From sequence record NZ_CP120538.1: a stretch of 9,630 nucleotides of DNA. The stretch is one strand, 5' to 3'. Within the stretch, counting starts at the first letter, position 1. The number at the start of each line of letters is the position of its first letter. Both the position numbers and the translations under genes were made by a program. The notes below the pieces were generated by a model, which was not told the DNA's origin, did no database searches, and saw only the letters and a program-made list of their open reading frames with translations. This stretch comes from a plasmid. Positions 1,341 to 9,546 of the stretch are shown in pieces.

Positions 1341-1363
1341 GTATCAAAAACCGAACGGTTATT
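1341..1363. repeat. Site A of a perfect 23-bp inverted repeat, GTATCAAAAACCGAACGGTTATT. The outer half TATCAAAAACCG plus central AA resembles the Hin/Gin hix half-site (TTATCAAAAACC, AA core).
   Basis: Exact reverse-complement copy at 2583-2605. Half-site similarity is from recall of hixL (TTCTTGAAAACC AA GGTTTTTGATAA). Confidence 0.7.
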
Positions 1364-1365
1364 AT

Positions 1366-1860
1366 TTAAAAATATTGAATTGAAAGGCTTTTTTTGCCTT
1401 CATCTCGATAAATCTCTTTTCCAGAAGCTCCCTTACCTTTCTCGCTTGAAATAAGAAGTTTTCTACCTAAAATGGAATCCATATAGTTTTTTTCATAAGT
1501 ATCAGAGCTAACTAGTGTTGAAGAACAAATATTTTTGTTTGTATTCGTATTTGTGAATTTAACAGTGAAGACTTTTTTGGCTGTGTCTTTTAGCTCTTTA
1601 GCAGATAGCCCACCATAGGAAACATTGATCAGTGTTGGAGAGGTCAATTGGTTGAACTCTTTTTCAGAGTAGTAATCACCGTTCTTTGTGATATAGAAAA
1701 ATTGAGAGCCACTAATGTAATATTTTTCGTTATGTCGATCTCTATCATTTTCTATATTAGAACAAAAAGCGGAATGGTCACCTAACCCGAACTGGTGAGA
1801 GTAATATGCACAGCCATTTAACGTAAATAATGATATGAATATGATTGATAATGATTTCAT
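1366..1860 (-). CDS. Lipoprotein of unknown function (164 aa), inside the putative invertible segment
   Basis: N-terminal signal peptide with lipobox LNGC (MKSLSIIFISLFTLNGC). No recognisable domain. The gene ends 3 bp inside site A. Confidence 0.65.
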   Translation of the reverse strand: MKSLSIIFISLFTLNGCAYYSHQFGLGDHSAFCSNIENDRDRHNEKYYISGSQFFYITKNGDYYSEKEFNQLTSPTLINVSYGGLSAKELKDTAKKVFTVKFTNTNTNKNICSSTLVSSDTYEKNYMDSILGRKLLISSEKGKGASGKEIYRDEGKKSLSIQYF

Positions 1861-1884
1861 GCTAAATATTACTCTTTGAATTAT

Positions 1885-2475
1885 TTAAATTTTATTAGCG
1901 TTCCAGTGTCTTTTTACTGTTGCTATACCAATACCTAAATGCTTTGCTACTTTGCTTTGGCTTAAACCTGCTTCTTTGGCTATTTGTATAGCTTCTTTAT
2001 GAATGCTTGACCCTTTAGGCCTCCCCAGTGTGACGCCTTTCGCTTTGGCTTTTCTTAATCCTTCATGTGTTCTCTCGATAATCCGAGATTTTTCAAATTC
2101 AGCAAAAGAGGCAAAAAGTTGCATCATTAATTTACCTTCTGCAGACATGAGATCGGCTATTGGTAAATCGAGACAAATTAGGTTTATTTCTTTCTCACTT
2201 AATAAGCTTATCGTTTTTTGAATATCGATATTATCTCTTCCTAAGCGATCTAATTTCAAAACAACTAACGAGTCACCCGCTTCCAGCTTATTGTTAACCA
2301 AGTTAGCAAAATGGGGACGTTGCATTGCAGGAACACCACCACTAATAGTCTCATTCACAACCCTATAATCTGGAATATCTTTAAATTCTGCTCTCCAATT
2401 ACGTATTGCCATAACTTGGTTTTCTGTATCTTGTTCTACCTTTGAACACCTACAATAAATAAAAATTCTACCCAT
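1885..2475 (-). CDS. Serine recombinase of the resolvase/DNA-invertase family (196 aa); Hin/Gin/Pin-like DNA invertase favoured
   Basis: N-terminal catalytic region IYCRCSKVEQD (R-x-S...Q). Conserved GDSLVVLKLDRLGR. ERTHEGLRKAKAKGVTLGRPKG, then a C-terminal HTH (HLGIGIATVKRH) resembling the Hin C-terminus. The gene lies between inverted hix-like sites, as hin does in the Salmonella H segment. Confidence 0.9.
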   Translation of the reverse strand: MGRIFIYCRCSKVEQDTENQVMAIRNWRAEFKDIPDYRVVNETISGGVPAMQRPHFANLVNNKLEAGDSLVVLKLDRLGRDNIDIQKTISLLSEKEINLICLDLPIADLMSAEGKLMMQLFASFAEFEKSRIIERTHEGLRKAKAKGVTLGRPKGSSIHKEAIQIAKEAGLSQSKVAKHLGIGIATVKRHWNANKI

Positions 2476-2582
2476 AACTTTATCCTCCTAAGAATCATTA
2501 ATCGGTATCATAATGTTTTAAGGTATCAATAAGTTATGTCAATGCTTTTGTAGCGAATAAAGTTACCTATATCCCTAATATC
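2476..2582. promoter_or_regulatory. Divergent control region between the recombinase gene and the Zn-ribbon gene. Contains three additional hix-half-like motifs: GGTATCATAATG (2504), GGTATCAATAAG (2522), ATATCAATAACC (2578).
   Basis: Motifs seen directly. Could be accessory recombinase sites (res subsite-like), a promoter region, or both. Confidence 0.4.
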
Positions 2583-2605
2583 AATAACCGTTCGGTTTTT
2601 GATAC
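2583..2605. repeat. Site B of the 23-bp inverted repeat (AATAACCGTTCGGTTTTTGATAC), exact reverse complement of 1341-1363
   Basis: Seen directly. Identity extends imperfectly to about 26 bp. Confidence 0.7.
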
Positions 2606-2631
2606 CGTAAAAATACTTAGGGGGAATAGGT

Positions 2632-2943
2632 ATGGCTGAGTGTCCATTTTGTAAATCAGAGGTTCATGATGAAGCTTCGATATGTCGAAGCTGTGGAGCT
2701 GAAAAAGTTGACTCATTCGGGGGGCACTTTAATAAAGCATTTAAAGAGACTCAACATGGAGTAGCGCCATTAGGTTTTGTAGGATTGCTTATTGGGGGGC
2801 TTTTGGGGCTTTCAGTCGGCATGAATTCAAATGGTGTTCTAGGTTTTATTGTATTCATACTTATTCTTTTATTTTTTATAACGCTCCCTGCTTTATTAAG
2901 AACACTACTTTTTAGAAGAAATAAGACAATTTGGTATAGATAA
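2632..2943 (+). CDS. Small membrane protein with an N-terminal zinc-ribbon (CPFC...CRSC) and two predicted C-terminal TM helices (103 aa)
   Basis: Two Cys pairs C-x2-C spaced 13 aa apart. Hydrophobic stretches LGFVGLLIGGLLGLSVG and VLGFIVFILILLFFITLPALL. GGGGG RBS 8 nt before the ATG. Confidence 0.65.
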   Translation: MAECPFCKSEVHDEASICRSCGAEKVDSFGGHFNKAFKETQHGVAPLGFVGLLIGGLLGLSVGMNSNGVLGFIVFILILLFFITLPALLRTLLFRRNKTIWYR

Positions 2944-2962
2944 CTTATAAATAGGAATAATT

Positions 2963-3484
2963 ATGTCTAAGTTTAAATGTTCAGTATTAGCTTTAACGGT
3001 ATTAGCTTTGTCTGGTTGTGGTGAGAAAAGCGACATAGAGAACGCGATAAATAAAAACATAGAAAATAAGGAGTATTGTTATAGCCTACAAGATAATGAT
3101 ATTTCATTTCCTATCACAATAGGACGAGATAACTTTTCTCAAGATTTTTCACCTATTTTAAAAGGATTAGCTAATCAAGGGTTAGTAACTTTACATAATC
3201 AAGGTTATAGGGATTATGTTATAAGCTTAACCGAAAAGGGGGCTAAAACAGATTTTTGGGATAAAAAACGTGGTGTGTGTATGGGGAAACGGGTTGTTGA
3301 CGATATAAAAGAGTGGACTGAAGGTGAGCAAAATACAATCATGGTCACATATACAGAGAAATTAGTTGATGTTCCTCGTTGGGTAGATAAAAAGTCTTTC
3401 TCTGATATTGAAGGAATGGATAGCCCTGCAGAGAAACGTGCTGTTTTAAAAAAAACAAGTAATGGTTGGAAAGTTTGGAATTAA
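2963..3484 (+). CDS. Lipoprotein of unknown function (173 aa)
   Basis: Signal peptide plus lipobox LSGC (MSKFKCSVLALTVLALSGCGEK). Follows the Zn-ribbon gene after a 19-nt gap, so probably an operon. No known domain recognised. Confidence 0.7.
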   Translation: MSKFKCSVLALTVLALSGCGEKSDIENAINKNIENKEYCYSLQDNDISFPITIGRDNFSQDFSPILKGLANQGLVTLHNQGYRDYVISLTEKGAKTDFWDKKRGVCMGKRVVDDIKEWTEGEQNTIMVTYTEKLVDVPRWVDKKSFSDIEGMDSPAEKRAVLKKTSNGWKVWN

Positions 3485-3504
3485 TATAAAACTTTTTCAA
3501 AAAA

Positions 3505-3544
3505 ACACAGAAAGCAGACAAAACAAGTTTTGCCTGCTTTCTGT
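3505..3544. terminator. Long perfect hairpin (CACAGAAAGCAG-A-CAAAAC-AA-GTTTTG-C-CTGCTTTCTGTG) downstream of lipoprotein gene 2. A-run on one side and a T7 run on the opposite strand.
   Basis: Seen directly. The T-run is stronger on the minus strand, so it may act bidirectionally. Confidence 0.55.
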
Positions 3545-3585
3545 GTTGTCATAACTAAATTTAATAGTATTCGATAGATAAAAAT

Positions 3586-3639
3586 TTGACATTACCTTTT
3601 TATGTATTATTTATATTGCTAAATAATCGATTAAATAAC
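3586..3639 (+). promoter_or_regulatory. Candidate promoter (TTGACA at 3586-3591 with an AT-rich -10 around 3608-3616) immediately followed by operator copy P1, GCTAAATAATCGATTAAATAAC (3618-3639)
   Basis: Seen directly. The -10 assignment is ambiguous in AT-rich DNA. The palindrome core TAATCGATTA is shared with three copies at 4196-4287. Confidence 0.45.
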
Positions 3640-3655
3640 TATAAAGAGGTTTATA

Positions 3656-4186
3656 ATGAATTATAATTTACCAAGCCCAGAGGAAATGATTAAACAATTA
3701 GGTGATTTAATTAATAAAAGGAATGAAAAAGAGAGGTTGGGAGATTTTTTCAATAATGATTATTTTTCTGAGTTCAGAAAATGTATAAACAATGAAGTTT
3801 CTGAAATAAAAAACATGGAGGTTAAAAGGTCAATAAAAGGTGCATATTTAAGCGCTTGTATAAAAAGATACAAAAGGAACATAGTAAAAGACTACATACT
3901 TAAAATAGCGCTTATTGAGGGGTTAGACCTGACTCAGAGGATAGCAGATCTATTTTTTATTGAATGCCTAGGAAGAAGTGTGGGAGAGTTCTTTCTCAAT
4001 GAGCATTTTTCTGGGTTGCAATATAAAGAAAATAAATTAACTAAAATAAAAAGAACGAGTGAAAATATTGTATTAAATCCAGTAAAAAAAGAAGAAGTAA
4101 AAGGAATTATAGCAAAATATAAAAATCAAATTATCGACTCAGTAGAAAAAATAAAATGTTATTTTTACGAAGCTAAGCTTTATTGA
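3656..4186 (+). CDS. Hypothetical cytoplasmic protein (176 aa), no recognisable family
   Basis: ORF with a GAGG RBS (AAAGAGGTTTATAATG). Lys-rich with no TM segment or signal peptide. Bracketed by the TAATCGATTA operator family. Confidence 0.6.
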   Translation: MNYNLPSPEEMIKQLGDLINKRNEKERLGDFFNNDYFSEFRKCINNEVSEIKNMEVKRSIKGAYLSACIKRYKRNIVKDYILKIALIEGLDLTQRIADLFFIECLGRSVGEFFLNEHFSGLQYKENKLTKIKRTSENIVLNPVKKEEVKGIIAKYKNQIIDSVEKIKCYFYEAKLY

Positions 4187-4195
4187 AATACTATT

Positions 4196-4287
4196 GCTAT
4201 TTAATCGACTATATAACTTTTAGTATCTAAGCTAATTAATCGATTAATTGATATTAATAACTAAAGCTAAATAATCGATTAATTAGC
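4196..4287. repeat. Array of three 22-bp near-palindromic operator-like repeats at a regular 35-bp pitch. P2 GCTATTTAATCGACTATATAAC (4196-4217), P3 GCTAATTAATCGATTAATTGA (4231-4251, with a perfect 16-bp palindrome AATTAATCGATTAATT), P4 GCTAAATAATCGATTAATTAGC (4266-4287).
   Basis: Seen directly. A fourth copy (P1) at 3618-3639 shares 17 identical nt with P4. P4 lies just upstream of a TTGACT hexamer (4304-4309) ahead of the mob genes. Confidence 0.7.
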
Positions 4288-4339
4288 TTTAAATGTAAAT
4301 ATTTGACTTTTATTTTATTTGTTTTATTTACTTTATATG

Positions 4340-4430: not shown

Positions 4431-4469
4431 CTAAAAGAAAAAATCAAAACCTAATCGGAGGTGTTATTT

Positions 4470-4829
4470 ATGGAAGTGAAAAAGTTTTACAAAGATCGCT
4501 ATCAGAGAAAAAATTTTGTGCGTTTATGTTTTAATGATTTCGAGTTTTCTATTGTTGAACAAATCGCAAAAGATAAAAGGAAAAGCAAAGCTACCGCATT
4601 GCGTGAATTTATTCTCGATAAAGAAATAAAAATTAAAAAAGATATTCAGTTAACAGATCGATCTGGTGTTTATTATGAATTACACAAAATTGGTGTGAAC
4701 ATAAACCAAATTGCTAAAAAAATGAATACAGATTTGGAATCATTTTTATCTGGTAATGGTGAGGAATTCGCTTATTTAATGGAGGAAATCTTCGAATATA
4801 TTGAATATATAAAGAACAGGATAAATTAA
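4470..4829 (+). CDS. mobC: MobC/MbeC-family mobilization accessory protein (about 119 aa from the ATG at 4470; the listed GTG at 4461 has no room for an RBS)
   Basis: MobC signature L-x3-G-x-N-x-N-Q-x-A-x3-N present (LHKIGVNINQIAKKMN). GGAGG RBS at 4456-4460. Stop overlaps/abuts the relaxase start (4832). Confidence 0.8.
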   Translation: MEVKKFYKDRYQRKNFVRLCFNDFEFSIVEQIAKDKRKSKATALREFILDKEIKIKKDIQLTDRSGVYYELHKIGVNINQIAKKMNTDLESFLSGNGEEFAYLMEEIFEYIEYIKNRIN

Positions 4830-4831
4830 TT

Positions 4832-6244
4832 ATGTATCATAAAATTATAGGCGGGATAGCAGATAGAAAACAACGAAATATAAAAAATGCGGTTAATTAT
4901 TTATTAAGGCTAAATAAATCAGAAGAGCAGATACACGTTAAAACGCTCTCTATGACGTCACAACAAGACTTATTAAATTTTAATAACTTCATATTACCAA
5001 AGAATAAAAAATCGCCCTACGTGTGTGGCGTGCTCTCATTTGAAGAAGAAAACATAAATGAAGACTTAAAAGTTAAAATTATGACTGATTTTGAAGAAAT
5101 GCTTTTTTCAGGGATAGAACTAACGAATAGACCACCTCTCATGTGGGTGCAGCATACCGACAAGGGTAGGTTAGAACTTAATTATTTAACATTTAATGTA
5201 TTAGCTGATGGTCGTTCTTTTACTGCTTACTTTGATAAGACTGATAGAAAATTATTCAACACATTTTCTGAGATCATAAATTATGAAAATGATTTTTCTA
5301 GCCCACTGGAGAAGTTAGATAAAAGAAACACATTAATAAATAACCCAAATCCTCAAGCCCCCAAAGATAAAAAGCTTCTTATTGAAAACCTTAACAATGA
5401 AATTATGGGGCAAATTTTGATTGGCGAATTAGCAGATCGTAACGAAGTAATAAAATACATAAAATCAAAAGGTTATAAAATAAATAGAGTAAGAAAAAAT
5501 GCGATAAGTATAAAGTTAGAAAATGACGATAAACCCATTGTTTTGAAAGGAGATATTTATGAAGAGGGTAGAATATACGCAGATTATAGAAGAGAGCCAG
5601 AAGTTAGCAATAGAAGAGATCCAGAAGTTGTTAAAAGCGCACTCAATCAATTTAGAGACGACTTTGAGCGATTGCTTAGCAAACGACAAGATAAAAATAG
5701 AAAACGCTTTAAAAGCTCACAGAGAAGCATTGAGAAAAGAATTGAGAGCAGAGTTAACAGCCAATATTTGGATCAAAATTTTGAAGTTAAAAATTCATTT
5801 GGGGTTGGGGGCGTTACTTTCTCTAAGTCTAATTTATATCACGATATTAACCATAATAATAATTTTAAAATAAAGGAGAAAAACAGTGAGTTATATATTG
5901 GAACGTATAAGAGAAAAGAAAAAACAGAAGCAGAAAGATTTGAATTATTACGAAATAGAATACTTGAAGCTAAACGAGTCCAGAAATCAACTGATCATGG
6001 AATTGAGAGATTTAGAGATCAGCAGCATAGAATTCGAGACTCAATTAGAACTACTCAATACAGAACTCGATTTGTTAGAGGATACGTTGCTAGATTTAGT
6101 GAATTATTTAACGAAATCTTGCAAAGAGCTTTCAGCTTTAGTTTCAGAGCTAAAACCCTCGAAGAGCGCAAAGAAAAAGCAAAAATCCTCCAAAAAGAAA
6201 AAACGGCCGAACTCAAAAGTTCAGGAAGAAAGTTTAGAGTCTGA
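4832..6244 (+). CDS. mobA: Conjugative relaxase, ColE1 MbeA-like (MOB_HEN / MOBP5 type), 470 aa
   Basis: N-terminal catalytic Tyr motif AVNYLL (compare MbeA VDYLL, Y19). H-x7-E-x-N motif (QHTDKGRLELNY) replaces the 3-His motif, as in MbeA. Preceded by mobC and contains embedded out-of-frame genes like mbeB/mbeD of ColE1. Confidence 0.85.
   Translation: MYHKIIGGIADRKQRNIKNAVNYLLRLNKSEEQIHVKTLSMTSQQDLLNFNNFILPKNKKSPYVCGVLSFEEENINEDLKVKIMTDFEEMLFSGIELTNRPPLMWVQHTDKGRLELNYLTFNVLADGRSFTAYFDKTDRKLFNTFSEIINYENDFSSPLEKLDKRNTLINNPNPQAPKDKKLLIENLNNEIMGQILIGELADRNEVIKYIKSKGYKINRVRKNAISIKLENDDKPIVLKGDIYEEGRIYADYRREPEVSNRRDPEVVKSALNQFRDDFERLLSKRQDKNRKRFKSSQRSIEKRIESRVNSQYLDQNFEVKNSFGVGGVTFSKSNLYHDINHNNNFKIKEKNSELYIGTYKRKEKTEAERFELLRNRILEAKRVQKSTDHGIERFRDQQHRIRDSIRTTQYRTRFVRGYVARFSELFNEILQRAFSFSFRAKTLEERKEKAKILQKEKTAELKSSGRKFRV
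5559..5873 (+). CDS. Embedded mobilization gene (MobB/MbeB-like analogue), 104 aa with a C-terminal membrane anchor, in the +2 frame inside the relaxase gene
   Basis: Strong RBS AAGGAGAT 6 nt before the ATG. C-terminal hydrophobic segment LGLGALLSLSLIYITILTIIIIL. Its position matches the overlapping mob genes of ColE1/RSF1010-type systems. Confidence 0.55.
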   Translation: MKRVEYTQIIEESQKLAIEEIQKLLKAHSINLETTLSDCLANDKIKIENALKAHREALRKELRAELTANIWIKILKLKIHLGLGALLSLSLIYITILTIIIILK

Positions 6245-6366: not shown

Positions 6367-6891
6367 TTATAACTTTTTACTTCTAGGTTTTGACAAGTCT
6401 GGAGGCGAACCAAAATATAAATCACCATTTTCTATTACGTATTTTATTGGTATTTTTGGGTTATTGATATCTTTTCCTCCATCTGAATGCCATTTTTTTT
6501 CCCATTTATCATAAAAAAATTCTAGATTTTCAGGCTGTAAAATATATATGCTTTTTATTTCTATGTTTTCGTAAATTGCAAAAACCCAAGGAACTTTTCT
6601 GTATTTTTCTATTATTTTTGGATTCATATGGTGGTGTGTTGAAAAGTTTTTCACTAGATCAATATTTGCTGATTTTAATTCATATTCAATACCACTTGAG
6701 TCAATTGCATCATTTCCCTCTCTTCCGGGGAGTACTTTTATGTCTAGTAATAATAATACTTGTAATAATTTTCCTCCATTGTCTTGAAATATATCATATA
6801 TTCCATGCTCATTAGCTAGATTTTGGTATTCTTGGATAGCAGGCCATAAATGTAGTAGTTTTTCGTAGTCTTTATTTGGTTTCAGAGTCAT
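6367..6891 (-). CDS. Type II restriction endonuclease, R.PvuII-like (174 aa)
   Basis: Close similarity, from recall, to R.PvuII across its length: LWPx[19 protein letters not shown], [22 protein letters not shown] (catalytic D/E/K region), [44 protein letters not shown]. Adjacent to the C gene and a divergent beta-class MTase, exactly as in the PvuII operon. Confidence 0.9.
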
Positions 6892-7114
6892 TAAATTCTT
6901 CCTTTAACAAATCTGATGCTGATATTTTCATCGCTTTTGCAATTTTTTCAATATTATCAATAGATATATTTCTTTCTGACCGCTCTACAGCTCCAATGTA
7001 TGTGCGGTGTAAGCCAACAAGGTCTGCGAAAGATTCTTGTGATATATTGTTTTTATTTCTATGATTTTTAATGTTTTTAGCGAGTATTTCTCGTAGCATC
7101 ATCTTCATTTTCAT
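6872..7114 (-). CDS. Controller (C) protein of the R-M system, XRE-family HTH (80 aa)
   Basis: [28 protein letters not shown]. Lies upstream of, and overlaps by 20 nt, the endonuclease gene. C-box-like repeats 35-60 bp upstream of its start. Confidence 0.85.
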
Positions 7115-7133
7115 TGAATAATAAAGGAATAAA

Positions 7134-8159
7134 ATGTACTATTTGATGACTATATATCTACAGACTATGAGTAGCAGATTGATGATTGATGATTTAAAGC
7201 GTGCATATTATACGAATAATGGAGCGGTATATGAGGGGGACTCTCTGAAGTTATTAGATTCTATCGCTGATAATAGTATAAATCTAATTATTACAAGTCC
7301 GCCTTTTGCTTTGCAGCGTAAAAAAGAATATGGGAATCATGATCAAGATGACTATATAGATTGGTTTATCCCTTTTGCTGAAAAAGCAAAGAGAAAATTA
7401 ACTGATGATGGTAGTTTTGTTATAGATTTTGGTGGTGCTTATAAAAAAGGTATGCCAGTAAGAAGTTTATATAATTTTAAAATTCTAATTGAATTAGTTG
7501 AAACGGTTGGCTTTCATTTGGCTGAGGATTTTTATTGGTTTAATCCATCAAAACTACCAAGTCCTATTGAATGGGTAAATAAAAGAAAACTAAGGGTAAA
7601 GGATTCAGTAAATACTATTTGGTGGTTAAGTAAAACTCCATGGCCTAAATCAGATGTAACAAAAGTATTGAGTCCATATAGTGAAAAAATGAAAAAGCTA
7701 ATTGATAATCCTGAAAAATATTATACACCTAAGATGAGACCGTCAGGACATGATATTGGAAGTAGCTTTGGTAAAGACAATGGTGGTGCTATCCCTCCGA
7801 ATTTACTTCAAATCCCAAATTCAGAATCAAATAGTGGATATTTATCAGGTTGTAAAAAAGTAGGAGTTAAATCGCACCCAGCAAGATTCCCTGCTAAGTT
7901 GCCTGAGTTTTTTATCAAAATGCTTACAGACGAAAATGATATTGTTCTTGATATTTTTGGTGGTTCAAATACTACAGGAATGGTTGCAGAAAATCTAAAT
8001 AGGAAATGGATTACTTTTGAGAAAGAGATTAATTATATAGCAACATCAGCTTTCAGATTCTTTGATAAAGGTGAAAATGAGGAATCTCTCATAAAAGTTC
8101 ATGATGATATCCTTTCTGGAAATGAAGTTAAGTTAAATGAGTTTTTAGTAAAAAAATAA
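7134..8159 (+). CDS. DNA methyltransferase, beta-class (motif IV before motif I), M.PvuII-like N4-cytosine MTase (341 aa). Alternative internal Met starts are possible (codons 5, 12, 17).
   Basis: Motif IV SPPF (IITSPPFAL) near the N-terminus. Motif I FGGSNTTG (DIFGGSNTTGMVA) near the C-terminus. The size and the divergent C/R arrangement match PvuII. Confidence 0.9.
   Translation: MYYLMTIYLQTMSSRLMIDDLKRAYYTNNGAVYEGDSLKLLDSIADNSINLIITSPPFALQRKKEYGNHDQDDYIDWFIPFAEKAKRKLTDDGSFVIDFGGAYKKGMPVRSLYNFKILIELVETVGFHLAEDFYWFNPSKLPSPIEWVNKRKLRVKDSVNTIWWLSKTPWPKSDVTKVLSPYSEKMKKLIDNPEKYYTPKMRPSGHDIGSSFGKDNGGAIPPNLLQIPNSESNSGYLSGCKKVGVKSHPARFPAKLPEFFIKMLTDENDIVLDIFGGSNTTGMVAENLNRKWITFEKEINYIATSAFRFFDKGENEESLIKVHDDILSGNEVKLNEFLVKK
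7148..7173. promoter_or_regulatory. C-box operator pair, GACT-ATA-TATC TACA GACT-ATG-AGTA, upstream of the C gene and embedded in the 5' end of the MTase ORF
   Basis: Tandem GACT-N3-AGTC-like half-site pairs with a 4-bp spacer, matching the known C.PvuII-type C-box layout. Sequence seen directly. Confidence 0.6.
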
Positions 8160-8202: not shown

Positions 8203-8466
8203 TTAAATTTGGTTTTTATCTTGCTGCTTGTAGCGCTTTGCTAAGGATTTTACCGCATCAATTGTAGCGTTCATGCTATCAGCAACGTCTTTCCAGGCTA
8301 AGCCTTTCTGTCTAAGTTCAAACGCTTGTTTTCTACGGGCTGCAGCTTCTTGTTCGTAATCTTCACGATCCTGTGAATAGTATTTTTTTACTGTTGCGAT
8401 TGATACGCCATATTCAAATGCTAAATCTTTTGCTTTTGTGTTTCTTTTTTGATTTTTAATTTTCAT
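8203..8466 (-). CDS. Small HTH DNA-binding protein (87 aa), translationally coupled to the upstream rep gene
   Basis: HTH segment LAFEYGVSIATVKKY. Start ATG overlaps the rep stop (ATGA). Basic C-terminus. Confidence 0.7.
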   Translation of the reverse strand: MKIKNQKRNTKAKDLAFEYGVSIATVKKYYSQDREDYEQEAAARRKQAFELRQKGLAWKDVADSMNATIDAVKSLAKRYKQQDKNQI

Positions 8467-9317
8467 AGTAATTCATTCCTTAGTGCAGCGAGTAGATTAG
8501 CAGCTTTTTTCTTCGTCTTAGTCTTCCCTAGGTTTCTTTTTCCTCGCTCACTTTGTATTTTTGAAAATTGTTCGGAGCTAAAATTCTTCCATACCCACTT
8601 TCCAACGCTTCTTGCTGTTGCTTTAATTTCGTTAAAAGGTAATAAATTAGTCGGATTTGAATAAGTATTGAGATTAATTGCTTGTTTTTCGATTTCATTC
8701 ATCCAGTGATGAAAATCGCTGATTTCTTTAAATTTTAAAACATTTTTATAAGCATAATGTCTTAAGTCGTCAAAGAGGTTGACGTTGCGACCTAATCCAA
8801 AGCTTTCATACTTAGTGGTCTCTTTATTTGAGTTTTCTAGTGTAATGAAATCAGCTAAATAATCGAGTTCATATAAATCCGCATTGCTCCAATGAGGTCT
8901 CCAGTGTGGATTGAATGGGTTTTTAGTGATTAAACCTGCAAATCCCTGATCTGCTTTTAGATTTTTTCCCATTTCTAATTCAACTGCAGCCGCATAACGT
9001 AATGGTTCTAACTTTGCATTTTGAGTCTTACATACTCCTCTTTTTAGTATATATCCCATATGACAACGCCCGTTTTCTGGGTTTTGAGTTGTAAAATGAG
9101 GAACTGGGAGGTGTGCTTCTTCAAAATCATAAAAGCTGTTATCTCTATCTATATCAAACAATAAGCATGTTTGAATTGAAGGATTATTTATCTGTAAGTA
9201 AAGCATATCTAACGCTTTATTTTTAGGTCTTATTTTTAGCCCGTAATCTAGGTTATCACTACAATATGGCTTATAGGGAAGTTGACTAATTATTGTTTCT
9301 TGGTTATCGTTATACAT
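8463..9317 (-). CDS. rep: Plasmid replication initiator protein (284 aa); tentatively ColE2-Rep/Replicase (primase-type) family
   Basis: Sits as the first gene behind a repeat-rich leader. Acidic hhhhDhD motif (LLFDIDRDN) as in primase-type Reps. Basic C-terminal tail. The family call rests on recalled features only. Confidence 0.6.
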   Translation of the reverse strand: MYNDNQETIISQLPYKPYCSDNLDYGLKIRPKNKALDMLYLQINNPSIQTCLLFDIDRDNSFYDFEEAHLPVPHFTTQNPENGRCHMGYILKRGVCKTQNAKLEPLRYAAAVELEMGKNLKADQGFAGLITKNPFNPHWRPHWSNADLYELDYLADFITLENSNKETTKYESFGLGRNVNLFDDLRHYAYKNVLKFKEISDFHHWMNEIEKQAINLNTYSNPTNLLPFNEIKATARSVGKWVWKNFSSEQFSKIQSERGKRNLGKTKTKKKAANLLAALRNELL

Positions 9318-9392: not shown

Positions 9393-9420
9393 GTTATAAC
9401 TCCTTTTTTCTTTGTGTCAA
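9393..9420 (-). promoter_or_regulatory. Strong candidate rep promoter on the minus strand: TTGACA (complement of 9415-9420), 16-nt spacer, TATAAC (complement of 9393-9398)
   Basis: Read directly from the reverse strand. The -35 lies inside copy 1 of the 38-bp direct repeat. Confidence 0.55.
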
Positions 9421-9546
9421 GTGTCTAAATTAACCATATCAGATAACAGCCAATTTTTGGTGGGTTTTCATATTCAAAAGGAAAACTGTTTATTTAGATT
9501 ATTGAACGTGTCAAGTGTCTAAATTAACCATATCAGATAACAGCCG
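9414..9546. repeat. Two perfect 38-bp direct repeats GTGTCAAGTGTCTAAATTAACCATATCAGATAACAGCC (9414-9451 and 9509-9546; 95-bp period). Each is followed by a TGG(T/G)GGGTTTT G-tract/T-run element, with a third such element at 9370-9389 in the rep leader.
   Basis: Seen directly. Too few and too long for classic iterons or a CRISPR array. Probably duplicated rep control or origin sequence. Confidence 0.75.

Follow-up and report, generated by a model that had tools for sequence, protein, structure and literature searches.

An invertible segment carrying a resolvase-like serine recombinase on a small mobilizable plasmid of Providencia

The window, that is, the whole 9,630-nt stretch of plasmid DNA analysed here (record NZ_CP120538.1), carries two open reading frames on the minus strand between positions 1341 and 2605. 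The first encodes a small serine recombinase of 196 aa (1885-2475; PF00239, E 2.4e-32, spanning residues 4-148), with the catalytic Ser11 that is invariant in the family and a C-terminal helix-turn-helix (HTH); the second, lipo1, begins 24 nt downstream of the recombinase stop codon and encodes a lipoprotein of 164 aa with the lipobox LNGC (1366-1860). To their right, on the plus strand, lie ZnR (2632-2943) and lipo2 (2963-3484). ZnR, of 103 aa, has an N-terminal zinc ribbon, with weak matches to Pfam Zn_ribbon_3/DZR below the curated cut-offs, and a hydrophobic C-terminal half in which two membrane helices can be read by eye; lipo2 is a second lipoprotein, of 173 aa and with the lipobox LSGC, and the third gene of what we describe below as the operon lipo1-ZnR-lipo2. 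The operon is closed by a strong stem-loop at 3504-3547 (no strand assigned; 20-bp stem, -25.5 kcal/mol, z -5.4), the T-run of which would make a canonical terminator on the minus strand. An Rfam search of the window returned no RNA family.

The recombinase and lipo1 genes, and nothing else, are enclosed by an inverted repeat, as an earlier note on this DNA had stated. Its arms at 1341-1363 (GTATCAAAAACCGAACGGTTATT) and 2583-2605 are 23 nt long, 100% complementary and 1219 nt apart in a repeat search of the window. The perfect 23-bp match claimed for them is thus confirmed, and it exceeds the longest perfect non-overlapping inverted repeat in every one of 200 dinucleotide shuffles (12-19 nt, mode 14); with up to three mismatches allowed, the 21-nt core of the repeat occurs at these two places only, against 0.00 expected from 200 dinucleotide shuffles. 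Both arms belong to longer sites of two-fold symmetry around a central AA, of which they make up the outer part. The proximal site (2579-2606, no strand), which contains the right arm, reads GTATCAAAAACCG-AA-CGGTTATTGATAT (plus strand: ATATCAATAACCG-TT-CGGTTTTTGATAC); it is close to a palindrome, its half-sites being symmetric at 11 of 12 positions, and is centred 116 bp upstream of the ATG of the recombinase gene. The distal site (1340-1367, no strand), which includes the left arm, reads GTATCAAAAACCG-AA-CGGTTATTATTTA and combines a good outer half-site with a degenerate inner one. The central AA is identical in the two sites, in inverted orientation, and the 2-bp core identity expected for strand exchange, the lack of which had been named as an argument against inversion, is therefore present. 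Accessory sites were looked for beside the distal repeat and not found, and no GTATC/GATAC cluster lies nearby: the distal site is a lone copy of what we call site I below.

The crossover sites are conserved beyond the window. The central CGAAC is kept in five lineages and, in comparison with a syntenic lineage of 71-73% DNA identity, the block around the left arm is 92% identical against 32-52% for the adjoining outer intergenic DNA; in that lineage, diverged by ~27%, the repeat is 26 bp long and the same C-to-T change has occurred in both arms. These comparisons support the view that the lone distal site forms an island of conservation and is under selection. A scan of JGI metagenome contigs for the 23-mer gave only two matches, single copies inside an unrelated open reading frame on a gut contig; we consider these a coincidence, and the scan produced no plasmid copies.

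Both orientations of the segment are found in public assemblies. Aligned by blastn, the window matches the contig L010 at 300-1363 on the plus strand, at 1341-2605 on the minus strand and at 2583-4200 on the plus strand again, and the breakpoints of the reversed state, orientation B, fall inside the repeats. A census of the fetched loci gave 36 in the window's state, orientation A, and three in orientation B (L010, L068 and L069); as L068 stands for seven further similar contigs, orientation B is represented by 10 contigs from two plasmid lineages, the segments of which differ, being 99.3% and 97.9% identical to that of the window. Sequencing runs with orientation B include SRR24628720 and SRR26188345, and a contig of SRR26035368 matches the window without a difference. 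Orientation A alone was seen in a lineage of 87% identity (seven loci), and PLSDB holds the segment in three plasmid records only, all in orientation A; a search of complete E. coli genomes found none. A scan of GTDB species genomes with the recombinase gave three Veronia loci of 60% identity and, from Providencia, a single contig of 955 bp in orientation A, adding nothing further on orientation, and our literature search found no paper describing the segment of this plasmid. We conclude that inversion of the DNA between 1341 and 2605 is real, the carrier being a small mobilizable plasmid of Providencia of the ColE2 type, and the central proposal of the earlier note, a site-specific invertible segment with its own serine recombinase, has stood up to the comparison. 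One copy of the segment is embedded in an NDM-1 plasmid.

The details of the reversed contigs argue against a trivial origin. In the lineage of L068 and L069, the distal site reads CCG-A-CGATT, 1 bp of the central AA being deleted; only one other indel occurs over 3.2 kb, counted from parA through lipo2. The segment is probably locked in this lineage. That orientation B was created by RecA-dependent homologous recombination at the 23-bp repeats, or by an error of assembly, is extremely improbable: any inverted repeat can recombine in principle, and the orientation-B sequences all come from short-read assemblies (Logan), but the repeat is shorter than the k of 31 used by the Logan assembler and both junctions are thus spanned by real k-mers. 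Moreover, 23 bp make a very poor substrate for RecA, the reversed state recurs across the two lineages, the repeat, as the putative place where the enclosed recombinase binds and exchanges strands, is conserved in relatives, and the indel of the locked lineage falls exactly in the core dinucleotide. One Logan contig (L022), present in two samples, among them run SRR6660870, is exactly 1265 bp long, starting with GTATCAAAAACCG and ending with CGGTTTTTGATAC; ends running from repeat to repeat reflect the branch pattern of a k = 31 graph when both junctions are present, as in a mixed sample, and the contig could alternatively come from a sample holding two plasmid populations.

The segment was initially described as putatively Hin-type, and parts of its layout agree with this. 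As in the Hin/H-segment, Gin, Cin, Pin and Min systems, a small serine recombinase is combined with two short inverted sites that share an identical, non-palindromic 2-bp centre; as had been pointed out for hin in the Salmonella H segment, the recombinase gene lies inside a segment of ~1 kb, and inversion would alter the transcription of genes outside it. The host is an enterobacterium and has Fis, and PHROG 125, a model annotated as "DNA invertase" but broad, matches the recombinase at 8.7e-51. The likeness of the half-site to hix holds in part: compared with Mu gix, which we read from the phage genome AF083977 as a reference for invertase sites (TTATCCAAAACC-TC-GGTTTACAGGAA), the half-site TATCAAAAACC does resemble TTATCCAAAACC, but in the window the two copies of the motif are 4 bp apart (TATCAAAAACC-GAAC-GGTTATTGATA), each being shifted outward from the centre by 1 bp. 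The site thus measures 28 bp, as does site I of a res, and not the 26 bp of hix or gix, in which half-sites of 12 bp adjoin the 2-bp core directly. The protein itself points elsewhere. Among PDB structures, it matches gamma-delta resolvase at 1.2e-18, Gin at 3.6e-12 and Sin at 8.8e-11, and the alignment to gamma-delta resolvase (residues 2-178) covers the full length, DNA-binding domain included, whereas BLASTP aligns Gin over 147 aa only (34% identity) and leaves the DNA-binding domain outside. The C-terminal domain matches Hin's DNA-binding domain at a non-significant E of 1.3, and the Hin-like HTH of the earlier note is not supported. In alignment A1, the identity is 30% to Gin and 32% to gamma-delta resolvase; members of the Hin/Gin/Cin/Pin group are ~60% or more identical to each other.

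The functional residues are in line with this. R3, R38, K63 and E65 of the recombinase, kept across its family, align with R2, R32, K54 and E56 of the Tn3 and gamma-delta resolvases, the residues of the Tn3-type regulatory (R or 2-3') interface (PMC9943657), and Gin has L/Q/R/Q in these columns. In helix E, the GRFFFHVM of Gin is replaced by GKLMMQLF or GKLMLQ in the window protein and all of its relatives, so that LMM stands in the place of the invertase Phe triad FFF; in Hin, this triad (F104-F106) gates the formation of the tetramer (PMC4513852). Relatives of 65-79% identity are found on plasmids of 3-5 kb with a single site, which fits a role in resolution. The best NCBIfam model, NF009949 (Mpi), scores 71.5 bits against a cut-off of 272, and the protein is thus not a member; relative to Tn3 and gamma-delta, it has a 5-residue insertion and the active-site motif YCRCS. 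Taken with the accessory sites described next, which adjoin one of the two crossover sites at the spacing of a res, the comparisons support the enzyme being, by ancestry and site architecture, a plasmid multimer-resolution resolvase, and the label Hin-type is not supported. An invertase of the Hin/Gin type, dependent on Fis and an enhancer and acting on two hix-like sites, is largely refuted by these sequence features, and we regard it as very unlikely. Fis sites are too degenerate to call in DNA of ~30% GC, and no evidence of a Fis enhancer was seen. Grouping with resolvases and res-site logic had been named in advance as grounds for abandoning the original reading; for the classification of the enzyme these grounds do apply, but the inversion itself is observed and unaffected. 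We also considered the serine at the position of Tn3 G101 as a cause of inversion and rejected it, as the whole family has the serine, single-site relatives included. In Tn3, G101S is an activating mutation.

The comparison of lineages supports a res of ~114 bp, with Tn3-like spacing, directly upstream of the recombinase gene. It would consist of a 28-bp site I (the proximal crossover site), a linker of 21-22 bp, a site II of ~34 bp and a site III; in five lineages, the half-site ends fall at -14, +14, +35/37, +69/70, +86/87 and +100 from the centre of site I, and the recombinase ATG follows at +109 to +117. To our knowledge, invertase systems have no accessory recombinase sites with the spacing of a Tn3 res. 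The accessory part lies at 2493-2558 (minus strand) and is marked by the conserved half-site ends and by a cluster of heptamers, all three GGTATCA heptamers of the 9.6-kb window being located within 2504-2606; the diverged lineage keeps 88-100% identity over 2490-2539. Site II extends from a degenerate left half at ~2554-2558 to a GATAC at 2524-2528, and site III is formed of GATAC at 2506-2510 and GATTC at 2493-2497. The window's own left half of site II and right half of site III are degenerate, and its GATAC motifs at +69 and +87 are in direct repeat; relatives have an inverted pair at +35/+69, like Tn3 site II. In Sin/beta-type resolvases, site II consists of half-sites in direct repeat. 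A perfect TTGACA -35 box at 2539-2544, inside site II, probably belongs to an autoregulated recombinase promoter, with a weak proposed -10 (TAAAAC). The res of Tn3 measures 114 bp, of which site I takes up 28 bp and the linker 22 bp, and the wild-type Tn3 resolvase strictly needs two complete res sites and discriminates ~1000-fold against inverted ones (PMC2602789, PMC9943657). The Tn3 rule of two complete res sites in direct repeat leading to resolution does not apply at this locus, where the inversion is between a res and a bare inverted site I.

The genes around the sites give the inversion a context. In orientation B, the order is recombinase, lipo1, a 51-nt spacer, ZnR and lipo2, and the prediction that inversion would make the recombinase, the first lipoprotein, the Zn-ribbon protein and the second lipoprotein co-directional is realized in L010 and L068. 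On other Providencia plasmids, represented by contigs of P. hangzhouensis of ~110 kb, lipo1 (65% identity), ZnR (56%) and lipo2 (62%) form a static operon, with a lipo1-ZnR spacer of 51 nt and with neither the recombinase nor the site; judged by this gene order, lipo1-ZnR-lipo2 is the ancestral operon, and lipo1 its first gene. The stop codon of lipo1 is 2 nt inward from the left arm, and ZnR starts 26 nt outside the proximal site and right arm in the window, a distance too short for a separate ZnR promoter outside the segment, and ~20 nt outside in the L024 lineage, which has a 60% identical gene at the same position. A consensus scan found seven promoter-like sites in the window against 13.5 in shuffles. 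Inspection of res by eye for an outward promoter driving ZnR in orientation A revealed no convincing candidate and none that the lineages share; res may nevertheless contain a divergent promoter, like that of Tn3, which would keep ZnR-lipo2 on in that state. A promoter-like site at 1308-1336, just outside the left arm, was dropped, being only 40-48% identical and not conserved.

The same comparisons bear on whether the segment is a mobile cassette, with the 23-bp repeats as its terminal inverted repeats and the serine recombinase as a transposase, an idea to which we give next to no credence. The repeats do bracket the recombinase and a single passenger gene, the 1265-bp contig ends where the repeats end, and segment and flanks form a mosaic in the P0001 lineage, the interior being 7.5-14% and the right flank 0.5-1% diverged from the window. 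However, in 39 of the 39 loci with flanks the segment occupies the same place, between parG and ZnR, and the 27%-diverged lineage is no exception; the flanks, reading atgcca up to the left end and cgtaaa from the right end, show no target-site duplication; elsewhere, where the element is missing, the three cargo genes adjoin each other and no scar is left between them; and the recombinase family elsewhere adjoins a single res.

We think it probable that the segment is a real switch, in which a resolvase-derived enzyme acts on a res and a bare inverted site I and thereby joins and splits a three-gene operon of envelope proteins. In this plasmid lineage, a second, bare and inverted copy of site I occupies the lipo1-ZnR spacer of the operon, and dimers of the recombinase would bind both copies; the strands would be cut at the central AA, staggered by 2 nt as is usual for serine recombinases. 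Rotation and rejoining would follow, and the block of res accessory sites, recombinase and lipo1 would be turned over. All four genes could then be transcribed from the recombinase promoter in orientation B, with the ancestral operon restored, whereas in the common orientation A, that of the window, the rear of res would adjoin ZnR-lipo2, for which no promoter is evident, and the two genes would probably be silent or low; the recombinase and lipo1 would be expressed in either orientation. As one partner has no accessory sites, the reaction is probably slow, and a slow reaction is consistent with clonal assemblies fixed in one state. Against this reading count the requirements of wild-type Tn3 resolvase, by which inversion between a res and a bare site I is no reaction of the textbook enzyme, the degenerate halves of sites II and III, the shortfall of promoter-like sites together with the weak -10, the second possible source of the 1265-bp contig, and the 87% lineage seen in orientation A alone. 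We infer that the enclosed recombinase is the catalyst, that it cleaves at AA and that the outcome is ZnR-lipo2 being turned on or off; the regulatory output and the cargo function of the switch are to be read in the same way.

The inversion might instead be an incidental by-product, the distal repeat being a relic of, for example, an old res x res exchange between plasmids by which the cassette was acquired or rearranged, and the resolvase only resolving dimers, with rare leaky flips that have no selected role. The resolvase-like enzyme and proximal site agree with this, as do the dominance of orientation A, with 36 loci against three and assemblies clonal for one state, and the mosaic of the P0001 lineage, which points to a hotspot of recombination between plasmids. 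We nevertheless find a by-product unlikely: the lone site stays conserved amid unconserved intergenic DNA at ~27% divergence, with the matching change in both arms; it falls precisely between lipo1 and ZnR, the ends of both genes adjoin the sites in two lineages, and inversion recreates the ancestral operon; and the core deletion in one of the orientation-B lineages is as expected for a fixed state. Taking the reading as a selected switch further, a Tn3-type resolvase, not a Hin-like enzyme, may have been turned into a phase-variation invertase. The full res would be kept for the resolution of dimers, and sites II and III would serve as a cis "enhancer", the enzyme's own dimers on them activating the synapse of site I with the bare site I in a three-site complex that resembles the Hin invertasome but lacks Fis; an envelope operon would be cut after its first gene, the cell being toggled between "lipo1 only" and "lipo1 + ZnR + lipo2", and the carriers would be mobilizable plasmids, which also become integrated into NDM-1 plasmids. 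This extended scheme is conceivable but doubtful.

Compared with known systems, the element shares with Tn3 and gamma-delta the domain architecture, the residues of the R interface and a res that abuts the gene, overlaps its promoter and spans ~114 bp. At 32% identity, it nevertheless belongs to a separate subfamily; its partner site is a bare inverted site I and the product inversion, not deletion, a pairing on which wild-type Tn3 resolvase is inefficient, and the central dinucleotide is the asymmetric AA, compared with AT in Tn3. From Hin it differs also in that not just a promoter is moved: the first gene of an operon is severed from the second and rejoined to it. Naturally inverting relatives of resolvases are the beta recombinase of pSM19035 and Bin/Sin, whose sites flank an invertible segment on staphylococcal beta-lactamase plasmids with Tn552; these, too, are plasmid-borne enzymes of the resolvase class that invert DNA at inverted sites and also serve plasmid maintenance. 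With them, complete sites serve as both partners, and between site I and site II a bending protein of the host binds, whereas here only one partner has accessory sites, in a Tn3-like layout of three sub-sites. Mpi, the master DNA invertase of Bacteroides fragilis, is likewise a serine-type invertase outside the Hin subfamily, but acts in trans on many promoter segments, the enzyme here acting on one segment, which includes its own gene.

Textbooks present invertases, which use Fis and an enhancer, and resolvases, which use paired accessory sites that block inversion, as separate solutions. The element looks like a natural intermediate between the two: its ancestry is that of a resolvase, with a Tn3-like res and intact interface residues, yet the flipping arrangement has been kept over ~27% divergence. 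Should the encoded enzyme prove to be the catalyst, the locus would allow one to examine, on a natural example, how resolvases can come to relax their topological filter; it would also supply engineering with an uncomplicated two-state switch, made of a 28-bp and a 114-bp site, and be an instance of phase variation on small mobilizable plasmids of clinical Providencia and Citrobacter. The variable, plasmid-borne copy also offers a handle for studying the cargo. Lipo1 is a rare lipoprotein, ZnR a membrane zinc-ribbon protein and lipo2 a lipoprotein widespread in Enterobacteriaceae.

Our analyses are in favour of the 1341-2605 segment being a resolvase/res-derived invertible element whose flipping separates and reunites the genes of a three-gene envelope operon, and natural variants confirm that it inverts in nature. 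In the window, the segment is framed by a perfect 23-nt inverted repeat, with arms at 1341-1363 (IR-L) and 2583-2605 (IR-R), and holds two minus-strand genes, a 196-aa PF00239 serine recombinase (1885-2475) and a lipoprotein (lipo1; 164 aa, 1366-1860), just as the earlier note had described; when the window was shuffled 200 times with dinucleotides preserved, perfect inverted repeats reached a maximum of 12-19 nt, and the 21-nt repeat core, allowing up to three mismatches, occurs in two places only, with none expected by chance. Contigs encoding exactly the window's recombinase or close variants yielded 39 loci in which the segment is accompanied by one or both flanks: 36 have the window's orientation (A) and three the flipped one (B; L010, L068 and L069, with L068 representing seven further similar contigs). 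The blastn blocks of L010 against the window alternate in strand (300-1363 plus, 1341-2605 minus, 2583-4200 plus), its breakpoints thus falling inside the repeats, and with both orientations present in assemblies the inversion proposed in that note is borne out. The B lineages are distinct from each other: segment identity to the window is 99.3% in one and 97.9% in the other. The orientation-B sequences are Logan assemblies; the Logan k-mer of 31 exceeds the repeat length, and the B junctions are therefore spanned by real k-mers. RecA recombination or an assembly artefact as the source of the flipped copies is, in our judgement, extremely unlikely. Another Logan contig (L022), found in two samples, is exactly 1265 bp long and runs from repeat end to repeat end (start GTATCAAAAACCG, end CGGTTTTTGATAC). 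For a de Bruijn graph to break at exactly both repeat ends, the base that adjoins the repeat must differ on either side, and this base does differ between the two flanks (a vs. g); the contig suggests that A and B were both present in one sample, a pattern that two co-existing plasmid populations would also give. Three complete plasmid records in PLSDB carry the segment, all in orientation A: pMobC of C. freundii, pPRVEN3-3 of P. vermicola and the NDM-1 plasmid pNDM15-1091, where the copy is embedded between two IS3000 elements. In this last, a 118-kb plasmid of Providencia rettgeri (NZ_CP012903.1; locus L001, 1361-17456), the entire small-plasmid backbone lies with the invertible segment between two copies of the IS3000 (Tn3-like) transposase. 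In a metagenome contig from the human gut (L012 1902-1924, L013 3528-3550), the exact 23-mer also occurs once, within an unrelated ORF (...QVSKTERLLLE...); no recombinase is near it, and we take it as a coincidence.

Read from outside inward, each arm makes up the outer half and the centre of a bigger symmetric site, GTATCAAAAACCG-AA-CGGTTATTGATAT at the proximal and GTATCAAAAACCG-AA-CGGTTATTATTTA at the distal end. Counted from the site centre, five lineages share the half-sites GTATC starting at -14, GATAC ending at +14, GTATC starting at +35 and GATAC ending at +69/70, +86/87 and +100, with the recombinase ATG at +109 to +117; these positions define a 28-bp site I, a 21-22-bp linker, a site II of about 34 bp and 114 bp overall, and site I, linker and overall span match those published for Tn3 res (114 bp in total, 28-bp site I, 22-bp linker; PMC2602789, PMC9943657). 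All three GGTATCA heptamers of the window lie within 2504-2606, and a search of the window found no accessory sites near the distal repeat. Given the conserved spacing, the heptamer cluster and the accessory sites at one end only, the proximal repeat is, on sequence grounds, site I of a res and the distal repeat a bare copy of site I. In the window, site II contains a perfect TTGACA, and the left half of site II and the right half of site III are degenerate.

The match to hix half-sites pointed out previously is real as a resemblance of motifs, TATCAAAAACC here and TTATCCAAAACC in gix (sites and Gin taken straight from the phage Mu sequence), but both copies of the motif stand one base further out from the centre, which makes the site 28 bp long and not 26 bp. 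Against solved structures, the recombinase aligns full-length with gamma-delta and Tn3 resolvases (1.2e-18) and with Gin from residue 53 onward only (3.6e-12); the isolated C-terminal half again prefers resolvases, the Hin DNA-binding domain reaching E 1.3, and a Hin-like character of the C-terminal HTH is not supported. In the family alignment, the recombinase has 30% identity with Gin and 32% with gamma-delta resolvase and forms a separate subfamily, marked by a 5-residue insertion and the active-site motif YCRCS. The regulatory R interface of Tn3/gamma-delta resolvases consists of R2, R32, K54 and E56 (PMC9943657); in the alignment all four residues are kept throughout the recombinase family and are missing in Gin, and LMM occupies the position of the Phe triad that gates Hin (PMC4513852). 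On the structure matches, the R-interface residues, the LMM, the res layout and the 28-bp site, we reject the Hin-type label of the earlier note; a true Hin-type system, to which the half-site motif bears a likeness, is very improbable. Relatives with 65-79% identity are found on 3-5 kb Providencia and Proteus plasmids with a single site each. Some contigs have two direct-repeat copies of the recombinase locus (L045/L046, ERZ24991170 NODE_881; L059/L060, GCA_001680125.1 LYBX01000015.1); they represent plasmid multimers or else a circle read through by the assembly, and hence the kind of substrate on which a resolvase would act.

The family of lipo1 is tiny: out of 1.8 billion proteins, a homologue search returned nine representatives. 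P. hangzhouensis contigs about 110 kb long (L070-L073) encode a lipo1 homologue (65%) and behind it, in the same direction and after a 51-nt spacer, homologues of the window's 103-aa zinc-ribbon protein (ZnR; 2632-2943, plus strand; 56%) and 173-aa lipoprotein (lipo2; 2963-3484, plus strand; 62%); these loci have no recombinase or crossover site, so elsewhere the three genes form an ordinary operon. In the window, the recombinase gene and res immediately precede lipo1, with 24 nt between the recombinase stop and the lipo1 start, and the bare site I is located in the lipo1-ZnR spacer; lipo1 ends 2 nt within one site, and ZnR begins 26 nt beyond the other (about 20 nt for the L024-L030 lineage). 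The gene order in orientation B is recombinase, lipo1, a 51-nt spacer, ZnR and lipo2; the operon is thereby restored, and the co-directional arrangement predicted for the inverted state is what these sequences have. In orientation A, ZnR-lipo2 is severed from lipo1 and the recombinase promoter and faces the back of res, where neither the window nor the lineage comparisons revealed a convincing or conserved outward promoter toward ZnR. From the gene layout we infer that ZnR-lipo2 would be off or low in A and on in B, with the recombinase and lipo1 expressed in both; Tn3 res contains divergent promoters, and some expression of ZnR-lipo2 in A is therefore possible.

Comparison among lineages provides evidence that the second site is maintained and not accidental. 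A syntenic lineage (L024-L030; recombinase variant P0002, 87% identical) has a regional DNA identity of just 71-73%, with protein identities of 89% for ParA, 81% for ParG, 67% for lipo1 and 60% for ZnR and a 430-aa lipoprotein substituted for the third gene; it keeps both arms, as a 26-bp repeat, with an identical C-to-T change in both outer half-sites. In 25-nt sliding comparisons with this lineage, the IR-L block is 92% identical, vs. 32-52% in the intergenic DNA just outside, and the site II/III-promoter block 88-100%. That the segment is instead a mobile cassette seems to us hardly conceivable. The distal site of the L068/L069 lineage, which is in orientation B, is GTATCAAAAACCG-A-CGATTATT, with one base of the central AA missing and a G-to-A change in the inner half. 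Only two indels occur across the 3.2 kb that span parA through lipo2, and this core deletion is one of them; it points to the central dinucleotide being the functionally critical position and should, we predict, lock the plasmid in orientation B. In the P0001 lineage (L014-L021 vs. window 1364-2499), the segment interior is 7.5-14% diverged and the right flank, from ZnR onward, 0.5-1%, and on its left the divergent block is bounded by IR-L; plasmid lineages seem to have swapped the segment among themselves.

Wild-type Tn3 resolvase strictly needs a synapse of two complete res sites and discriminates approximately 1000-fold against inverted sites, and mutants selected for activity on res × site I have lost this control and give inversions (PMC2602789, PMC9943657). 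Given this behaviour of the wild-type enzyme, we see two options: a normal resolvase may react slowly and leakily at res × bare site I, which the 36:3 census and the clonal assemblies would fit, or control in this subfamily may be relaxed or re-purposed, such that the one set of accessory sites present here triggers synapsis of site I with site I. Inversion as an incidental by-product is rather unlikely, the conservation data favouring a selected function over pure accident. The invertible segment, of which we found no description in the searchable literature, is of note for specialists in site-specific recombination and plasmid biology.

Among the cargo proteins, lipo1 is predicted to fold as an OB-like barrel (pLDDT 81), and ZnR combines a zinc ribbon with a hydrophobic C-terminal half that, read by eye, would form two membrane helices; family searches with the cargo gave no match to defence or phage families. 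Homologues of lipo2 (P0149-P0266, about 49% identity) are chromosomal in Klebsiella, Salmonella, E. coli, Citrobacter and Yersinia, and many records list them under the wrong name 'DNA-directed RNA polymerase subunit beta'. Sister plasmids encode 384-aa PAAR-motif proteins (L005 1-946, L007 944-2098, L008 9054-9405), and one chromosomal lipo1 homologue adjoins a Rap1a-like gene (L078 4673-5074); these observations hint at the lipoproteins being candidate type VI secretion immunity proteins.

By gene content, the window (about 30% GC) is a ColE2-type mobilizable plasmid, with ParA (316-936), a ParG-like small ribbon-helix-helix protein (981-1214), MobC (4461-4829), an MbeA-like relaxase (4832-6244), a PvuII-type restriction-modification system (6367-8159) and a ColE2-type Replicase/PriCT Rep (8463-9317, minus). 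The PvuII-type cassette consists of the endonuclease (6367-6891, minus; PF09225), a C-protein HTH (6872-7114, minus) and an N4/N6 methyltransferase (7134-8159, plus); sister plasmids have at its position an NgoBV-type R-M, a TIR-domain protein, PAAR proteins, colicin immunity or CcdAB instead. Upstream of the Rep gene, two perfect 38-bp direct repeats (9414-9451 and 9508-9545, 94 bp between them) are probably iterons or the origin. Four partly palindromic GCTAAATAATCGATTAA-like repeats (3618-3645 and 4196-4293), on both sides of an uncharacterised 176-aa ORF (3656-4186) that closely precedes mobC, may serve as an operator or belong to the oriT region. Finally, TCATGA-centred palindromic repeats before parA (223-246), in the parA/parG gap (925-948) and after parG (1214-1237) are likely ParG operator or centromere sites, and the last may double as the parG terminator.
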